From an uncultured Gemmatimonadales bacterium (GTDB lineage Bacteria; Gemmatimonadota; Gemmatimonadetes; Gemmatimonadales; GWC2-71-9), in assembly GCA_963825055.1 (NCBI GenBank), contig CAWGSK010000009.1:128001-192000 (forward strand): a stretch of 64,000 nt of DNA, read 5' to 3'. Position numbers: made by a program. Shown here one piece after another: positions 27,001 through 33,000 of this stretch; the stretch's first letter is position 1, and each line of letters opens with the position of its first letter.

Positions 27001-30000
27001 CCAGCAGATCATGGACCTCCAGACCCAGAACGTGCAGCTGGTCGCCCAGAAGCAGGCGTTGACCGACACCGTCACCGGTCCTCGCCCAGGGAGCGGTCAA
27101 GCTGGGTCAACGAGCAGAATGCGGCCTGGTACGTGATCAGCTCGAAGGATGAACTGAAGGACATGGGCGTCGTGACGGAAGAAGGCAGCAAGTTCCTCTT
27201 CTTCGGCGGCAAGTCCCTCCAGCCGTCACGGACCCTCCCCACCGAGAACTTCACCCAGGTGGACATCCGGGACGTCCAGTCGATCCCGCTGCCGAAACCC
27301 GACAAGCGCTACAAGATCGTCTCCCGGCAGAACCTCGCGGCCATCGAGGGCGCCGACGAGAAGGGCCGGGTAACCGGCCAGATCGACATCGTCGATCCCC
27401 GGAGTTTCTGGGCGCCGAGCCACTACCTCATCTTGGTGGAGGACTGAGAACCGCAGTGAGTAGTGAGTAGTGAAGACTAGTGCTTCGAGCGCGAGAGAAA
27501 GGGGGGGAAAAAAAAAAAATATAATCACCCTGAATCACTAATCACTAATCACTACTCACTGCCCGGTGGTTCACGTCCGCTCCAGCCGTCGCATCGGTCG
27601 CACGGTCGACCGCAGCTTCGTGCGTTCCGGGGCTGGCATCCGGCGCAGCATCCCGCCGACGCGGGGCGCCGTCCAGGTGACGGTCATCCTCTTCTGCTTC
27701 CGCATGATTTCCAGCTTCGCGCTCTCCCCCTGCTCATAGCTGCCGAGGATGCGGTGGGCGTGGGCCGCGTTGTTCAGTGACCGGCCGTCGATCGACAGGA
27801 TGGCATCTCCGGCGCGGAGCTGGCTCGCCGAGTCCTCCGGCGCATCGAGCACCAGCACCCCATCGGAGGTCCCGAAGTACTCGCCAAGGCCGGTTCATGT
27901 CCTCGAGCCCGAGCCCGCCGCGGCTGAACGTGAAGCTGAACTGGCCCGGCGTGTCGGGGCTCCGCTTCATCAGCGGGGCCATCCGCCCCATCATGGGTCC
28001 GACATCGAAGCGGTACTCCCCCCGCCCGCCCGGGGTGACAAAGGAGAACATCTGGTTGCCCTCGTCAGCCTTCAGGGTGGCCTTGGCGCTCTTGCCCGCA
28101 TGGAGGTATTCGAGGTCCACCTTGTCGCCGGGCTTGAGTTTCTGGGCCAGCTCTACGAGCCGACGTCCCGGCGAGTCGTCGTCGGAGTTCGCAGCGAGCG
28201 AGGTGCCGTTGAACTTCGTGATCACGTCATTCGCCTTGATTCCCGCCTTGTCCGCGGGCCCGTCCGGCACCACGGAGACCACCCAGCGCGCCGCGCGTTT
28301 CCTTCTCCGAATCCGTCCCCATCTGGGCCATCACCCCGATCCGACCACAGTCGGGATCGCCACGCCATCCGCCCCTGGGCCGCGGAGGGTCGCCGGGGCG
28401 GCGCGAGCAGGATCCCGAGCGCCCCGATTACCAGTTGCCGTTTCATGTCAGGTCCCCTGTGGAGGAAGTGAGTTGACTACCCCGGAGATGCGGAAGCCGG
28501 GCGGATGGTCGCAGGGTGGGGTATGGGGTATGGGGTATGGGGTATCGGGTACGGGGTATCGGGTATGGGGTATCGGGTATCGCCAGGCTGCGCGCATCTC
28601 CATTTACCACTTACCACTTGCCACTTACCACTCGCCCCTTGCCACCCCGCCGGCGGGCCCCTTGCATCCCTTGAGAATCAGCCCGGAGGACCCATGCGCA
28701 TTCTGATCATCGGTGGAACGGGAAAGGTGGGGAGGGCGGCAGCGCGGCGCCTCGCCGGAGGCGGGCACGACCTCCGGGTCATGACCCGGGATCCTGCAGA
28801 AAGCCCGGAGTCTCCCCGAAGGCCAGCGCGGCGTGGTCGGGGACCTGGACGACCCGGCCTCGCTGGGGGCCCGCTCGAAGGAGTGGAGCGGGTCTTCATG
28901 GTGACCCCGCTCGACCAGCAGGAAACGACGCTCGGGACGAATGGTGTGGCGGCCGCCAGGGAGGCCGGGGTACGGGCGATTCATCTAACATGTCGGTTCA
29001 GGCCTGGCCGATGCGTTCCCGGAAATCCCCCACTTCGCCAGTAAAGTCCCTGTCGAGCGCGCCGTCGCCGCCAGCGGCATGGAGTACACCATCCTGCGGC
29101 CCAACAGCTTCTTCCAGAATGACGAGCGCCTGGTGGACGTCATCCGCGAGCACGGCGTCTATCCCCATCCGGTGGGAGCCGCATCGGATTGAGCGCCGTG
29201 GACGTGGCGGATATCGGCGAGTGCTGCGGCTCGTGCCCTGACCGGTGGGGACGGGTTTGCGGGGGCGCACCATCAATGTGGTCGGTCCCGAGGTCCGGAC
29301 GGGGGAGGACAACGCCGAGGACCTGGGCCGAGGTCCTGGGCCGGGGGAGTCGATCTACACCGGGGACGACGTCGAGAGCCGCGTGCGGGGACCAGCTCCG
29401 CAAGGCGCTCCCGTCGCGCCCGGGGGGGGGACGTGTCGCGGGATGGCCGCCAGTCCTGGCACGCGGCTTCAGCCGCCACCGACCAGGACCGGGCCGGAGA
29501 CCGAGGGAACTCCTCGGACGGGACGGACGGAAATACGAGGATTGGGTACGGGAGAGGGGGTCAAGGGGGAAGGGTGAACGGGAACGGCGGCTCACCTTTC
29601 ACCCCTCACGGCGTTGTCACCTCTTCTGCCATCTCCCTGAGAAACCGGCTGCCACCCCGCGTCTTTCCCCTCCCGGCGGGCGACGCGCGTGAGAACCCGG
29701 CGGTCGATGGCCCGTGTCATGCCGACATACAGCAGGCGCCGTCCCTCCCTGATCTCGCCCAGGCGGTTGTCCACCGTCTGGTAATATCCCGGAAGCTGGT
29801 AGTCCTCGACGCCCACGACGTACACCCGGGAGAACTCCAGTCCCTTCGTCGCGTGGAGCGTGAGGAGGTTCACCTGGTGGCGGTCCACCTCCGCCCCGTC
29901 GGAGGTGGACAGCGCCACATGTTCCAGCAGGCGGTCCACCGATTCTTCCATGCTGTCCATCTCACTCGCGGCGATGATCCCCCGAAGCCGTGCGATCGCC

Positions 30001-33000
30001 TCGGGGTAGCGGTCCTCCGGCTCCCGCTCCTGCCGGAGCCGATCCATGAGGCGCTGTCCCCCGAGGGCGTCAATGAGCGCGTCCACCGTGGGCACCGCCG
30101 GATCCGCGAGGCGGGTGCGCTCCATTTCATATGACTCGAGGCAGCTGCTGTACCGTCCCAGGGCACGGGCGCGGCTTACCTCGAGCAGCGTACGCGCTTC
30201 GGCGGACCCCGGACGGGGATCTTCGAGCGCGAGGCCCACGCCCAGCCAGTCCATCAGGTTGACGAGCGAAGCCTTTCGGGCCCTGGCGACTTTCTGTTTT
30301 CCCAGTTCCACGAACACCCGGCCGAGTGTCTCGGCGTCGTCGTCGGCATGGTGCGAACGGCCCGGGTCGATCCCGAACCGCTCGGCAAGATCGACGAGCT
30401 TGGCGCTGCCGCTGGTGAGCGACCGGGCCAGCGGGAGGGAATCGAAGAAGACGAGCCCTTCGGCGCCGGGAAGCCCTTCGGCCATGCGGCGCAGCACCGG
30501 CACATCGAACATCAGCCCGTTGTGCGCGACGAGGATGTCCTCACCGACGAATGCGCGGAACGCGGGCCATACCTCCTGGAACGTCGGCGCGCCGGCGACA
30601 TCGGCATCGGTGTACCCGTGCACCTCGGTCGCCTTCGGGTGGATCGGGAGCTCCGGACAGACCATCGCCCGGTAGCGGTCCACGACATCTCCCCCCCGCA
30701 CGCGGACGGCGCCGATCTCCACGACGGCGCACGTCTCCGTATCCTTGTCGGTCGTTTCCAGGTCGAAGGCAACGAAGCTGTCGAACTCCTCCCCGAAGTC
30801 GCGGCTGTGCAGGAGTTGCAGCGCCTTGAACAGCGTGAGGGGGTCCGATTCGACCGTGAGGTCCCCCGGCCCGGGCTCGCGGGCGCGGTCGGGTGCGTTC
30901 AGGTACTCGACCGTGGTCACACCCGAGGCGAGCAGCATTCCCCGGAGCGCGATTTCGATCCCCCGTCCTGGGGGGAGCCAGACCTGCTGCCGCCCGTGCA
31001 GGGCGGCGGAAAGCCGCCCGGCCAGCTCGGGAGCGCCGGGAAACCGGGCGGGATCGGTCAGTTCGTCATGGCGGTCGTCCAGCGGATTCCGGTACTCCCC
31101 CACCTGCTGGGAGAGGAGGTCCTGTACCAGTCCGTGCAGCGTCGACGCGGCCTGCCAGGTGCCGGCCAGGTTCTGGACGTGATAGACAAAACGCCAGGCC
31201 TGTTTCGTTTCCGGCGCGCTCGACGGGCTCGCCCTCGCGAAGGCTCGCACGGCGGCAGGGAAATCCTCGTCGTGCCCTGGCTGGCGCAGGATCTTCTCCA
31301 CCAGATGACGGGGGAGCACCCGACGGGCGAACGCCTCCACCAGGGCCGAATCCTCCGGCGACCGCATTACCCGCAGGGCGGCCACCACGAAGCCGATCAC
31401 CGGGTCGTCCCTGAGCGCCCGCCCTCGGGCCAGCCGGCAGGGCAGGCCGGACTGCACCAGGGCGCTTTCCAGGGCCACGCCGACCGAGTGCTTGCGGTAG
31501 AGGATGGCATAATCGCCCCAGTCCCGGGGTTCGGCATCACGATCCTGCCGCAGGTCTTCGATCAACCAGGCCGCCTCCGCCTGCTCGTCCTCGAAGTGCC
31601 ACGCCGTGACCTCGTGCCTGGAATGGCGCTCGGCGCGAAGCTGCTTCTCGAAGAGCGACGGCTCCGCAGTCACCAGCTGCCGGGCCATGGCGAAGATCTG
31701 GGAAGAGCATCGCCGGTTCAGGTCGAGGACGTATGGCTGGTCGATCCCGAAGTCCGTGGCGTAGCGCCGGAGCACCTCGGGGTCGGCGCCGCGCCAGGAG
31801 AAGATGGACTGCTCGTCGTCACCCACCGCGAAGCAGTTCCGGTGACCTTCGACCAGCGCGCGGAGAATCCGGTACTGGACCGGGTCGAGGTCCTGGAACT
31901 CATCCACCAGCACGTAATCCCACTGGGCGGCCACTGCGTCCCGCACCGAAGGATGGCGGTGGAACAGGTCGGCGGTGCGCTCGATCAGGCCGTCGAAGTC
32001 GAGGATGTTCCGGCTGCGAAGGTACTCCTCGTAGCGGAGAAAGACGTCGCGATCCGCCGGGGCAAGCACGACACCCTGAAAGCGATGCTGGCTGAAGAGA
32101 TTGAGCAGCTGCCGGCGGCGCCCTTCCTTGTAGACCCCGACACGCCGGAGAACGACCAGCTGGTATTCCTCGTCGGCAATGCCGAATCCCCGGCGCAACC
32201 CGGCCTCCTCACCGTGCTCCCGCAGGATCGCGACGCACAGCGAGTGGAGTGTCCCCCGGGTCACGTCGTCGGCCGCATCCCCAAGCGCCTCGTGGAGCCG
32301 GGCAGCAATCTCCTCCGCCGCCTTGTTGGTGAAGGTGAAGGCACAGATCCGGTCCGGTCTGATCTCAAGCGTGTTGACGAGGTACCCGATGCGGTGGATC
32401 AGGCAGAACGTCTTCCCCGCCCCCGGGCCGGCCACCACGAGGACCGGCCCGAGAGGAGCCTCGATGGCCGCGCGCTGTGCAGGAGTGGGGGTGGACGATG
32501 ACATGGGGGAAACCTAGCCTGCTCCCCGCTGCTGTTCCCTCTCCCCGGTTGACACCTGCCTCCACCCGCACGATAGTGCAAACCTCGCCACGTCCGCGGC
32601 CGCAATCCTGGGAGGACTTTCATGACACCCCGCGCACTGACCGCCGCAGCCCTGCTCGCGTCGGCGATTCTCGCCGTTCCCGGAAGTGCCCGCGCGCAGT
32701 TCGGCTCGCTCAAGAAGGCCGCCGAGCGCGCGGCGGAGAGCGAGGCGAACCGCCAGGTGGACAAGGCCGTCCGGAACACCATCCGGTGTGCCGTTGATGA
32801 TCCCGCGTGTGCCGAAAAGGCCGAGAAGAACGGCGACACCGTCGTCTACACGGACGCCGCGGGCGAGGTGATCACCGACGAATCGGGAAACCCGGTGTCC
32901 GACCGGGAGGCGGCGAAGGGCGCGGCGGAGAAGCCCGGCAGCGGGGTCTGGGTGAACTACGACTTCGTCCCCGGCGACAAGGTGATCTTCGCGGAAGACT

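Follow-up and report, generated by a model that had tools for sequence, protein, structure and literature searches.

A UvrD/PcrA-type helicase with a DEDDh exonuclease nested in its retained 2B domain, and its genomic link to Ku–LigD end joining in Gemmatimonadota

What does a bacterium do with a UvrD-type helicase that carries an exonuclease domain in the same chain? The question is raised by a gene in a 64,000-nucleotide stretch of a contig from an uncultured Gemmatimonadales bacterium (here called the window). The host of the gene is a soil bacterium. An ORF check confirmed the single open reading frame of 970 amino acids (aa) that an earlier note had placed at 29592–32504 on the minus strand; it encodes a UvrD/PcrA-type helicase with a nested DEDDh exonuclease. 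The parts of the gene and its upstream surroundings are as follows.

32622–33905, plus strand: OmpA-family lipoprotein gene
32505–32621: intergenic region that separates the divergently oriented helicase gene (minus strand) and OmpA-family lipoprotein gene
31749–32483, minus strand: domains 1A and 1B, aa 8–252 (PF00580; residues invariant in 52 sequences), with Walker A GPGAGKT (26–32), motif Ia TFTN (57–60), motif II DEFQD (201–205) and motif III (228–237)
31413–31733, minus strand: N-terminal part of 2A, aa ~258–364 (UvrD_C model 1–133, PcrA alignment, invariant residues), with motif IV Y336/R337
31095–31412, minus strand: N-terminal half of 2B, aa ~365–470, all helical, borders approximate (profile alignment, fold match)
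30780–31094, minus strand: first part of the insert, aa ~471–575, a linker and a small α/β unit (secondary structure of the models)
30270–30779, minus strand: predicted DEDDh (DnaQ-like) 3′–5′ exonuclease domain, aa 576–745 (PF00929, fold matches)
30150–30269, minus strand: last part of the insert, aa ~746–785, two helices returning to 2B (models, profile alignment)
29880–30149, minus strand: C-terminal half of 2B, aa ~786–875 (profile alignment, fold match)
29655–29879, minus strand: C-terminal part of 2A, aa 876–950 (Pfam, alignment), with motif V TLHATKGLEF (882–891) and motif VI YVGMTR (926–931)
29592–29654, minus strand: out-of-frame tail, aa 951–970, and stop codon (extra G in the run 29655–29658)

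The Pfam layout given in the earlier note was reproduced: UvrD-helicase (PF00580) at aa 8–252 (224 bits), UvrD_C as two separate stretches, the best at aa 841–935, and a complete RNase_T domain (PF00929) at aa 578–731, which covered model positions 1–164 of 164 and scored 88.3 bits (cut-off 24). All three Exo motifs are present as claimed, with D581/E583 in Exo I, D667 in Exo II and H718/D723 in Exo III. In an alignment of 52 sequences, these five residues were invariant or nearly so, as were helicase motifs I, Ia, II, III, IV, V and VI; the equivalent catalytic and motif residues were likewise invariant in 15 distant homologues. An AlphaFold2 model of the whole ORF (mean pLDDT 87.6, pTM 0.78) has the fold of UvrD/PcrA/Rep (Foldseek E about 1e-27), with 1pjr, 2is1, 3lfu and 1uaa as the best PDB matches. 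Judging from the invariant residues and the fold matches, both engines look active.

The exonuclease had previously been described as a 450-residue insert (aa 391–841) that replaced the 2B domain. This description had to be revised on both points: the 2B domain is kept and is split by the nested module, and the insert comprises about 315 residues (aa ~471–785). The family profile was aligned with E. coli UvrD as far as residue 468, and in the comparison with M. tuberculosis UvrD1 residues 24–523 were aligned. Past the insert, the alignment with PcrA resumes, pairing profile positions 784–948 with PcrA 460–624. Ordinary UvrD sequences filled 87–100% of the columns for aa ~365–470 and 0–11% of those for aa ~471–575, and the insert position was identical in both groups compared. 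When a model of aa 360–880 was superimposed on known structures, 147 residues matched PcrA chain residues 1082–1247 (Z = 11.9) and 148 matched AddA 613–773 (Z = 12.6). These superpositions drew on helices flanking the insert at both ends, and the fold match covered model residues 1–515, corresponding to 360–874 of the protein. Since the profile alignment and a fold match that takes in helices before and after the insert agree, we conclude that the exonuclease is nested within a retained 2B domain. Where PcrA has its GIG motif, the aligned sequence here is RRVLPRH.

The window copy contains one extra G in the run 29655–29658, which shifts the final 20 residues into another frame, so that the conserved GGSRFLxEMG end is lost. 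These residues (aa 951–970) had pLDDT values below 50, and contigs from three of three soil runs have one base fewer at 29655. Residue 936, an R in the window copy, is an L in at least 90% of homologues, and its codon reads L in public contigs. A promoter for the helicase gene itself is expected in the divergent intergenic region, where the sole consensus promoter match found is on the plus strand (32549–32577).

In a tree of the N-terminal 390 residues, with 35 ordinary UvrD/PcrA and 40 insert-bearing sequences, a single branch with an SH-aLRT support of 100 separated the two sets. An ordinary UvrD is also present in the genome, as noted earlier (contig C13, a 766-aa frame, 282.7 bits), and the helicase–exonuclease is, as proposed, a dedicated UvrD-type helicase with a complete DEDDh exonuclease that is distinct from it. 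Its equivalog scores were far below the cut-offs (PcrA: 321 bits against 911), and the databases give it no family name, in line with the earlier description of the architecture as unnamed. The claim that it is conserved through the family stood in part. Among genomes at least 90% complete, the gene was found in 59 of 97 from its own family and in 12 of 40 from the sister family; its distribution is patchy, with no gene detected in the other 38 of the 97. With a presence in about 60% of its family, it is an accessory gene. The nested architecture also occurs in Acidobacteriota, Calditrichota, KSB1, KSB3 and Krumholzibacteriota, that is, in at least five other phyla, and is thus not confined to its own bacterial family.

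The closest relative of the exonuclease domain by sequence was PolC (2p1j, E = 2.3e-24; NF001688, 93.9 bits). By fold, it matched Pol III ε (Z = 23.4, RMSD 1.8, 160 residues aligned), the exonuclease of S. aureus DinG (Z = 23.3), PolC (Z = 22.1) and ExoX (Z = 20.3). The proofreading exonuclease of PolC is likewise a DnaQ-like domain nested in another domain, being placed inside PHP; there the host protein is a polymerase, whereas here it is a helicase. Pfam gave no PD-(D/E)xK domain in the protein.

What is new here is a genomic link between the helicase–exonuclease and Ku–LigD end joining in Gemmatimonadota. The gene was carried by 72 of 200 Gemmatimonadota genomes with a completeness of at least 90%. 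Ku was present in 70 of these 72 carriers, compared to 71 of the 128 non-carriers, and was not found in two carriers (G039 and G048). In one genus (g7), three genomes had both gene and Ku and four had neither. The two genes shared a contig in 37 carriers from two families, and the distance between them was at most 6 kb in 24, 10 kb in 26 and 50 kb in 35 of the 72. (With two unpublished genomes, G053 and G153, left out, Ku was present in 68 of 70 carriers and within 6 kb in 22 of 70.) Across 46 Gemmatimonadota loci, the top recurrent families within 4 kb were LigD (with PE, ligase and Prim-Pol domains), Ku, DUF72 and Abhydrolase_11. These genes occur in at least four orders near Ku or LigD, with the helicase–exonuclease once in line with ligD. 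At one locus (L060), DUF72 and Ku point left and LigD, Abhydrolase and helicase–exonuclease point right, and the gaps do not exceed about 50 bp. At another (L019), a rightward helicase–exonuclease is followed by leftward DUF72 and Ku and a rightward LigD.

The linkage is far from universal. The fetched flanks of 62 loci contained Ku in 16 cases and LigD in 20; of 19 loci whose flanks reached at least 5 kb in each direction, six had one or the other and about two thirds had neither, as was the case for all four insert-bearing metagenome loci. In the genome studied here, the genes are scattered over three contigs: C9 has the helicase–exonuclease, with the OmpA-family gene on one side and unrelated genes on the other, C13 has Ku and LigD, and C17 has Abhydrolase_11 and DUF72. 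Because related genomes are not independent, adjacency and co-occurrence may both stem from synteny that was inherited or from an ecology that accessory repair genes have in common. Furthermore, Ku is commonly present without the gene, the Ku-bearing non-carriers taking in entire families (f6 and f7), which places the gene outside the core end-joining pathway. Still, the neighbourhood and co-occurrence with Ku–LigD make a role that had been left blank in the earlier note less open, at least within Gemmatimonadota. We put the probability at about one half that the protein combines 3′–5′ unwinding and trimming in one chain and acts in Ku–LigD end joining as an accessory factor for end processing.

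Like UvrD, PcrA and Rep, the protein has a 1A/1B/2A/2B fold with all seven helicase motifs; it differs from them in the ~315-aa DEDDh module in 2B, in the departure from GIG, in its own tree branch and in lacking the C-terminal Tudor extension, which was absent in sequence and profile comparisons. RecB, AddA and AdnB also join an SF1A UvrD-like motor to a nuclease that cuts the 3′-ended strand, and AddA gave one of the two 2B matches above, but the nuclease in these proteins is a PD-(D/E)xK endonuclease at the C-terminus, and they act as multi-subunit machines of homologous recombination. The human RecQ helicase WRN, which has an N-terminal DEDD exonuclease and is stimulated by Ku70/80, likewise combines a 3′–5′ helicase and a 3′–5′ exonuclease of the DEDD superfamily in one chain and acts with Ku at DNA ends. 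However, its motor is an SF2 RecQ and its exonuclease a DEDDy enzyme, terminal rather than nested, and the two fusions have no common descent. In S. aureus DinG (PDB 9ii8/8zef), a DnaQ-like domain is similarly fused to a helicase-family protein, with an SF2 XPD-like core, 5′–3′ polarity and an N-terminal exonuclease. B. subtilis MrfA and MrfB are reported to be a helicase and a DEDDh exonuclease acting jointly in a dedicated DNA repair pathway; these are two proteins, the helicase is not of the UvrD type, and the lesion is the mitomycin C adduct. The mycobacterial nucleotide-excision-repair helicase UvrD1 is also a UvrD-type motor tied to Ku. As reported in PMC13646824, Ku activates the UvrD1 helicase, partly by binding its C-terminal Tudor domain, 2B is an autoinhibitory, regulatory gate, UvrD1 has no nuclease, and M. 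smegmatis can join the ends of a blunt-ended plasmid without UvrD1. The tie to Ku is functional in UvrD1 and genomic for the helicase–exonuclease. UvrD1 is a precedent for the end-joining reading; the missing Tudor domain and the dispensability of UvrD1 count against it.

The same enzymology would serve a general excision or fork-clearing enzyme unrelated to end joining, whose closeness to Ku and LigD is an inherited "repair island". Such an enzyme could carry out a self-contained UvrD plus ExoI/ExoX step in mismatch or nick-directed excision, or free gaps and stalled forks of blocked 3′ ends. In E. coli mismatch excision, UvrD is paired with the DEDDh exonucleases ExoX and ExoI. In the window, as at most long-flank loci, the gene is on its own, and the architecture reaches phyla outside the sample that gave the Ku link. 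Against this, the genome has a separate ordinary UvrD, nearly all carriers are Ku-bearing, and the closeness to Ku and LigD survives rearrangement of gene order across two families. We regard this as a realistic but less likely possibility. It is improbable, on the other hand, that the DEDDh domain trims RNA 3′ ends, at R-loops or on unprocessed RNA, while the motor strips the hybrid: the closest relatives of the domain in both sequence and fold (PolC-type, ε and ExoX) are DNA exonucleases, and the recurrent neighbours are enzymes of DNA ends. What favours it is the Pfam family itself, RNase_T, a weak match to the Rv2179c-like exoribonuclease model, and the reported suppression of R-loops by PcrA/UvrD (PMC8318588) and reported use of rRNA precursors as substrate by the Listeria DinG exonuclease (PMC12774634).

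A defence function against phages or plasmids, of the kind seen in Gabija GajB, is suggested by PADLOC GajB models scoring up to 289 bits and by a CRISPR-associated DEDDh model at 107 bits. The GajB matches are restricted to the generic UvrD core, however; no GajA-type or other defence family was found among the window neighbours, at least 80% of the insert was covered in none of the 15 plasmid and none of the seven phage records that matched, and the recurrent neighbours are repair genes, all of which makes this function very unlikely. Lastly, the protein might replace a replicative proofreader where free dnaQ is missing. As the earlier note had found, there was no free PF00929 gene in the bin, which is 87% complete. 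The note took this for a gap rather than biology, a point left unsettled by three relatives (G035, G052 and G064) among 30 with a completeness of 96% or more, which have PF00929 only inside the helicase. Most relatives, however, have both the embedded domain and a free gene in a ~300-aa frame, many genomes of the family do without the helicase–exonuclease, and the ε equivalog scored 64 bits, below its cut-off of 222.7. Moreover, proofreading by the PHP domain of Pol III α is known from other bacteria. Replacement of the proofreader is thus barely credible.

In an end-processing role beside Ku and LigD, the gene product would be a single-chain, ATP-driven strand-resection enzyme acting on DNA rather than RNA, possibly in contact with Ku. 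The SF1A motor would load at a 3′ single-stranded tail or nick and travel 3′–5′, opening the duplex, while the DEDDh exonuclease, carried in the mobile regulatory 2B lobe, would degrade a strand in that direction too, starting at its 3′ end. In Rep, UvrD and UvrD1, unwinding is gated by the 2B lobe; with the nuclease placed there, a swivel of this lobe could couple or gate the two activities. The net result at DNA ends would be the removal or cleaning of the 3′-ended strand. In Gemmatimonadota, 3′ ends that are damaged, unpaired or overhanging may be trimmed in this way, after which the LigD polymerase would fill and its ligase seal the break.

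The helicase-exonuclease is encoded in the window by a single long ORF (29592..32504, minus strand) of 970 aa. Pfam recognized a UvrD-helicase domain (PF00580; aa 8–252, 224 bits), a UvrD_C domain in two stretches, of which the best was aa 841–935, and an RNase_T domain (aa 578–731) that covered the whole model at 88.3 bits, against a cut-off of 24. The helicase motifs Q10, GPGAGKT (26–32; motif I, Walker A), TFTN (57–60; Ia), DEFQD (201–205; II), GDxxQSIFxW (228–237; III), Y336/R337 (IV), TLHxTKGLEF (882–891; V) and YVGMTR (926–931; VI) were invariant or at least 90% conserved among 52 full-length homologues. 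The DEDDh residues D581 and E583 (Exo I, DxE), D667 (Exo II) and H718/D723 (Exo III, Hx4D) were invariant in the same 52 sequences, and in 15 distant homologues the equivalent DEDDh residues were again invariant and the helicase motifs likewise conserved. Judged from this conservation, the catalytic centres of the helicase and the exonuclease are both under selection.

The motifs and a predicted four-subdomain fold (1A/1B/2A/2B) assign the protein to the SF1A UvrD/PcrA/Rep superfamily, while the exonuclease part classifies as DEDDh (DnaQ-like) by its catalytic residues and modeled RNase H-like fold, with a predicted metal-dependent 3'-5' activity. The ordinary-helicase equivalog models of NCBIfam were missed (TIGR01073 pcrA, 321 bits against a cut-off of 911; TIGR01075 uvrD, 270 against 1144; TIGR01074 rep, 305 against 951), as were the dnaQ/epsilon models (TIGR01406, 64.2 bits against 222.7; TIGR00573, 66.1 against 71.5). 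With scores far under all of the equivalog cut-offs, no curated family names the helicase-exonuclease. A PD-(D/E)xK nuclease domain, a feature of RecB, AddA and AdnB, was absent from the protein's eight Pfam matches, and the chain stops at 2A. The Tudor-like C-terminal extension that is a feature of PcrA, UvrD and UvrD1 was not found after 2A; intact homologues stop ~15 residues past the SRFL motif, and the PcrA alignment stops near residue 624–648 of 724. In the phmmer alignment, whose register at this spot is tentative, the duplex-binding GIG motif in 2B of PcrA (KRGIGAS) pairs with RRVLPRH (family consensus VLP).

The earlier note had described the 2B domain as replaced by an insert spanning aa 391–841. 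The ORF, its domains and its motifs were as that note had them, but the loss of 2B and the size of the insert were not; the borders had been taken from Pfam model coordinates and were too wide. The family profile could be aligned continuously with E. coli UvrD as far as residue 468 and with M. tuberculosis UvrD1 as far as 523, and picked up PcrA again over residues 460 to 624. The full-length AlphaFold2 model (pLDDT 87.6, pTM 0.78) matched 1pjr, 2is1, 3lfu and 1uaa (PcrA, UvrD and Rep) in Foldseek with an E-value of about 1e-27. A second model, comprising aa 360–880 (pLDDT 90.8), was compared against 48,161 PDB representatives. Its centre has the DnaQ fold, matching E. coli epsilon with Z = 23.4 and an rmsd of 1.8 (160 of 174 residues aligned), the S. 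aureus DinG exonuclease with Z = 23.3, PolC with Z = 22.1 and ExoX with Z = 20.3; the Foldseek TMt for the exonuclease fold was 0.8. The helices that flank the exonuclease, taken together, superposed over 147 residues on PcrA chain residues 1082–1247 (Z = 11.9) and over 148 residues on AddA 613–773 (Z = 12.6); Z values of ~12 for helical domains are not decisive alone, and the profile alignment concurs on 2B. In a joint alignment, ordinary UvrD proteins occupied 87–100% of the columns through aa 470, versus 0–11% of those from 470 to 745. Thus, the profile alignment, the 2B fold match and the column occupancy place the exonuclease mid-way within a 2B domain that is retained and split by the insert. 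The inserted module extends over about aa 471–785 and consists of:

a linker and a small alpha/beta unit (unit at aa ~485–570)
the exonuclease, aa 576–745
two helices

Compared to a 97%-identical homologue and to a second copy in the bin, the window copy carries a single additional G in the run 29655–29658. The last 20 codons are thereby frameshifted, and the conserved end ...GGSRFLREMG... is swapped for 20 unrelated residues, over which the AlphaFold2 model was disordered. In addition, codon 936 (29697–29699) encodes R in place of the L found in homologues. The copy on contig C33 of the same bin carries the intact C-terminal form, and contigs from three of three soil runs (all from one study) lacked the extra base and had L at codon 936. 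Since these soil contigs may come from the other strain, the extra G may be either an assembly error or a true lesion. We rejected the C33 copy as a paralogue: its contig is syntenic with that of the window (C9), shares ~97% identity with it across 17 kb, and represents a second strain. Similarly, matches to Ku and LigD on contig C28 score equal or nearly equal to those on C13. These duplicate syntenic contigs indicate that the bin mixes two strains, which fits its 6% contamination.

Immediately upstream of the gene, a 491-aa ORF (32514–33989, minus strand) was considered as an operon partner and rejected, having no family match and being the shadow of a gene on the plus strand:

32622–33905, plus strand: OmpA-family lipoprotein gene, whose C-terminal OmpA domain scored 120 bits against the YiaD model

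This gene is divergent from the helicase gene, with 117 bp between them. The remaining neighbours are not DNA-metabolic and comprise FG-GAP and beta-propeller proteins, a PLP-dependent decarboxylase and a glyoxalase-fold protein. The stretch 34069–39551 (plus strand) holds three large consecutive genes, for an FG-GAP/LVIVD repeat protein, a lactonase/NHL-like beta-propeller and an FG-GAP protein, which look like a cluster for cell-surface or secreted proteins.

When the insert was used as a query against 1.84 billion representatives, 107 clusters were found at E ≤ 1e-30. Twenty-eight cluster representatives were scanned, and the 20 that were full-length (961–1084 aa) all showed UvrD-helicase followed by RNase_T within UvrD_C. 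A distant-group query likewise returned PF00580, PF00929 and PF13361 in all of the 120 proteins listed. By name, the distant homologues belong to Blastocatellia, Chloracidobacterium and other Acidobacteriota, Caldithrix abyssi and other Calditrichota, KSB1, KSB3 (Vecturithrix) and Krumholzibacteriota. The names that homologues carry identify the source organism as a member of the Gemmatimonadales. None of the plasmid and phage records covered at least 80% of the insert. The ESM Atlas holds clusters of 825–881 aa with UvrD-helicase and RNase_T in Cyanobacteriota, Bacillota, Bacteroidota and Uroviricota. Among 62 loci fetched as Gemmatimonadota (see below), one with a 53%-identical homologue comes from a bin labelled as a gammaproteobacterium (locus L028, titled Steroidobacteraceae bacterium); it is probably a Gemmatimonadota contig placed in the wrong bin, with transfer as a possibility.

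In a maximum-likelihood tree of the N-terminal 390 aa, from which insert residues were left out, one branch (SH-aLRT 100) parted 35 ordinary UvrD/PcrA proteins, including the UvrD of the own genome, from all 40 insert-bearing proteins. The tree is consistent with a single origin of the insertion and does not prove it, because it came from a quick search, is unrooted and drew its ordinary sequences from one metagenome scan (one locus was removed by the length filter). Among 200 Gemmatimonadota genomes at least 90% complete, the gene was carried by 59 of 97 in the own family, 12 of 40 in the sister family and the one genome of a third family; in the other 62 it was not found, save for one free DnaQ-like match in G018. 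The gene had been taken as conserved through the family, and is accessory instead. The earlier observation was partly confirmed and its interpretation partly supported; the chief corrections are that 2B is kept and that the gene is accessory and occurs in several phyla.

The carriers are nearly all Ku genomes. Ku was found in 70 of the 72 carriers (the exceptions being G039 and G048) versus 71 of 128 non-carriers, counted over relatives that are not independent and uncorrected for kinship. Within the own family the figures were 58/59 and 21/38, and among 30 itemised genera Ku occurred in 19 of 20 carrier genera versus five of ten non-carrier genera. One genus (g7) includes three genomes with both genes and four with neither. 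In 37 carriers, distributed over two families, Ku was on the same contig as the gene, at a distance of no more than 6 kb in 24, 10 kb in 26 and 50 kb in 35. Leaving out two unpublished genomes (G053 and G153), Ku remained present in 68 of 70 carriers and within 6 kb in 22 of 70. A predicted complex between the Ku dimer and the insert (470–785) scored 0.00, which is no answer and counts neither way. Since Ku is also common in genomes that lack the gene, the helicase-exonuclease is at most accessory to end joining.

We fetched 62 Gemmatimonadota loci, many with short flanks, and for 46 of them clustered every frame lying up to 4 kb from the gene. The window's own neighbours recurred in none of the 62. 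The most recurrent families within 4 kb were full LigD (3'-phosphoesterase, ligase and Prim-Pol), Ku, DUF72 and Abhydrolase_11; in the fetched flanks of all 62 loci, Ku was counted 16 times, LigD 20, DUF72 22 and Abhydrolase_11 23. Ku or LigD was present in six of the 19 loci that had at least 5 kb on each side. The loci display at least four gene orders with Ku/LigD. In locus L060, DUF72 and Ku point one way and LigD, Abhydrolase and the helicase-exonuclease the other (<-DUF72 <-Ku / LigD-> Abhydrolase-> helicase-exonuclease->), separated by gaps of at most ~50 bp, an arrangement that looks like a ligD operon. In L019, the order is helicase-exonuclease-> <-DUF72 <-Ku LigD->. Elsewhere, the Abhydrolase gene lies downstream, or Ku/LigD is 4–5 kb off. 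The tightest recurrent neighbour is Abhydrolase_11 (PF20408), which adjoins the helicase-exonuclease on the same strand in 23 of the 62 loci, often 12–50 bp upstream, while DUF72 (PF01904) is in many loci on the same strand as ku and directly downstream of it:

Abhydrolase_11 upstream of the helicase-exonuclease: L016, L019, L020, L024, L026, L027, L041, L044, L060, L064
Abhydrolase_11 downstream: L040, L046, L049, L050, L062 and others
DUF72 next to ku: L019, L031, L040, L046, L049, L050, L052, L055, L059, L060 and others
DUF72 in the own genome: C17:32664-33976, next to Abhydrolase_11, not ku

The genes are scattered in the own genome: C9 holds the helicase-exonuclease, C13 both Ku and LigD, and C17 Abhydrolase_11 and DUF72 side by side. 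A metagenome scan with the distant group gave mostly ordinary UvrD/PcrA proteins and four insert-bearing loci, all Gemmatimonadota-like, none of which had Ku nearby. On another metagenome contig (L083), which ends before the exonuclease would be reached, LigD, Ku, DUF72 and Abhydrolase_11 lie upstream. By both gene linkage and co-occurrence, the helicase-exonuclease is associated with Ku-LigD as a putative accessory, the own genome being the exception for linkage. DUF72 may be an unrecognised accessory of end joining as well. Computational work has predicted that it is a repair enzyme resembling endonuclease IV (PMC3828134, PMC4939058), and such an activity would fit a gene cluster for the cleaning of ends.

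The protein combines two catalytic modules, both conserved and both from known families, and the nuclease sits in 2B. Motors of the SF1A type travel 3'-5' along single-stranded DNA, and DEDDh enzymes of the DnaQ type take nucleotides off free 3' ends. We infer that motor and nuclease move the same way on the same strand, so that the enzyme, starting at a 3' tail or nick, would unwind the duplex and digest the 3'-ended strand in the wake of the motor or next to it. The product would be a 5' overhang or a clean recessed 3' end, the type of substrate that is filled in by the LigD polymerase. In Rep, UvrD and UvrD1, unwinding is gated by the 2B lobe. UvrD1 is activated by Ku, presumably through a shift in the position of 2B (PMC13646824). 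A nuclease borne by 2B could therefore follow the same swivel, which might present or withdraw the exonuclease.

WRN is a known partner of Ku, and we propose the helicase-exonuclease as a bacterial counterpart: a Ku-linked enzyme that would supply the resection or cleaning of 3' ends missing from the two-protein Ku-LigD model, with the swivelling 2B as the switch that both licenses unwinding and presents the 3' end to the exonuclease, and with Abhydrolase_11 and DUF72 as further, so far unrecognised parts of the same end-processing module. We hold this reading tentatively, at a probability of roughly 0.3. PMC13646824 also shows UvrD1 to be dispensable for the end joining of a blunt plasmid, which cautions against reading the link to Ku as a role in end joining. 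Alternatively, the protein may be a general excision enzyme that merely inherited its closeness to Ku, an equally tentative proposal. That it acts on RNA or R-loops we consider improbable. A helicase for defence is more doubtful still: an OLD-type ATPase-TOPRIM partner of the GajA type, as in Gabija, was not found in 23 + 10 neighbouring ORFs, and the GajB models cover the generic UvrD core only. It seems very unlikely that the embedded domain stands in as a proofreader. PF00929 was present in all of 30 relatives at least 95% complete, most of which had a free gene (a frame of ~300 aa) together with the embedded domain, although the embedded PF00929 was the only match to this query in G035 (5 contigs), G052 and G064, each at least 96% complete, and likewise in the own bin.

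Helicases fused to nucleases are well known, as in RecB, AddA, AdnB, WRN and exonuclease-bearing DinG. The present architecture is already visible in databases under generic names, and full-text searches of a library of papers (main texts) returned no UvrD-type helicase with a nested DEDDh domain, and none tied to Ku. Compared to the earlier note, the main new element is the linkage to Ku-LigD. Thousands of entries named “UvrD-helicase domain-containing protein”, “PcrA” or “Pol III epsilon” make up one separate family, which merits a name of its own. The role of 2B, as coupler or as autoinhibitor, is still debated (PMC13646824). The helicase-exonuclease is a natural experiment on this domain, loaded with a second catalytic domain in an arrangement kept in at least six phyla. 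Bacterial end joining is usually presented as the work of two proteins, Ku and LigD, and to our knowledge the nuclease that trims 3' ends before joining has not yet been assigned in the mycobacterial literature. A gene that is nearly confined to Ku genomes, and that sometimes stands in line with ligD, offers a concrete candidate for this 3'-end trimming, and one that can be tested.
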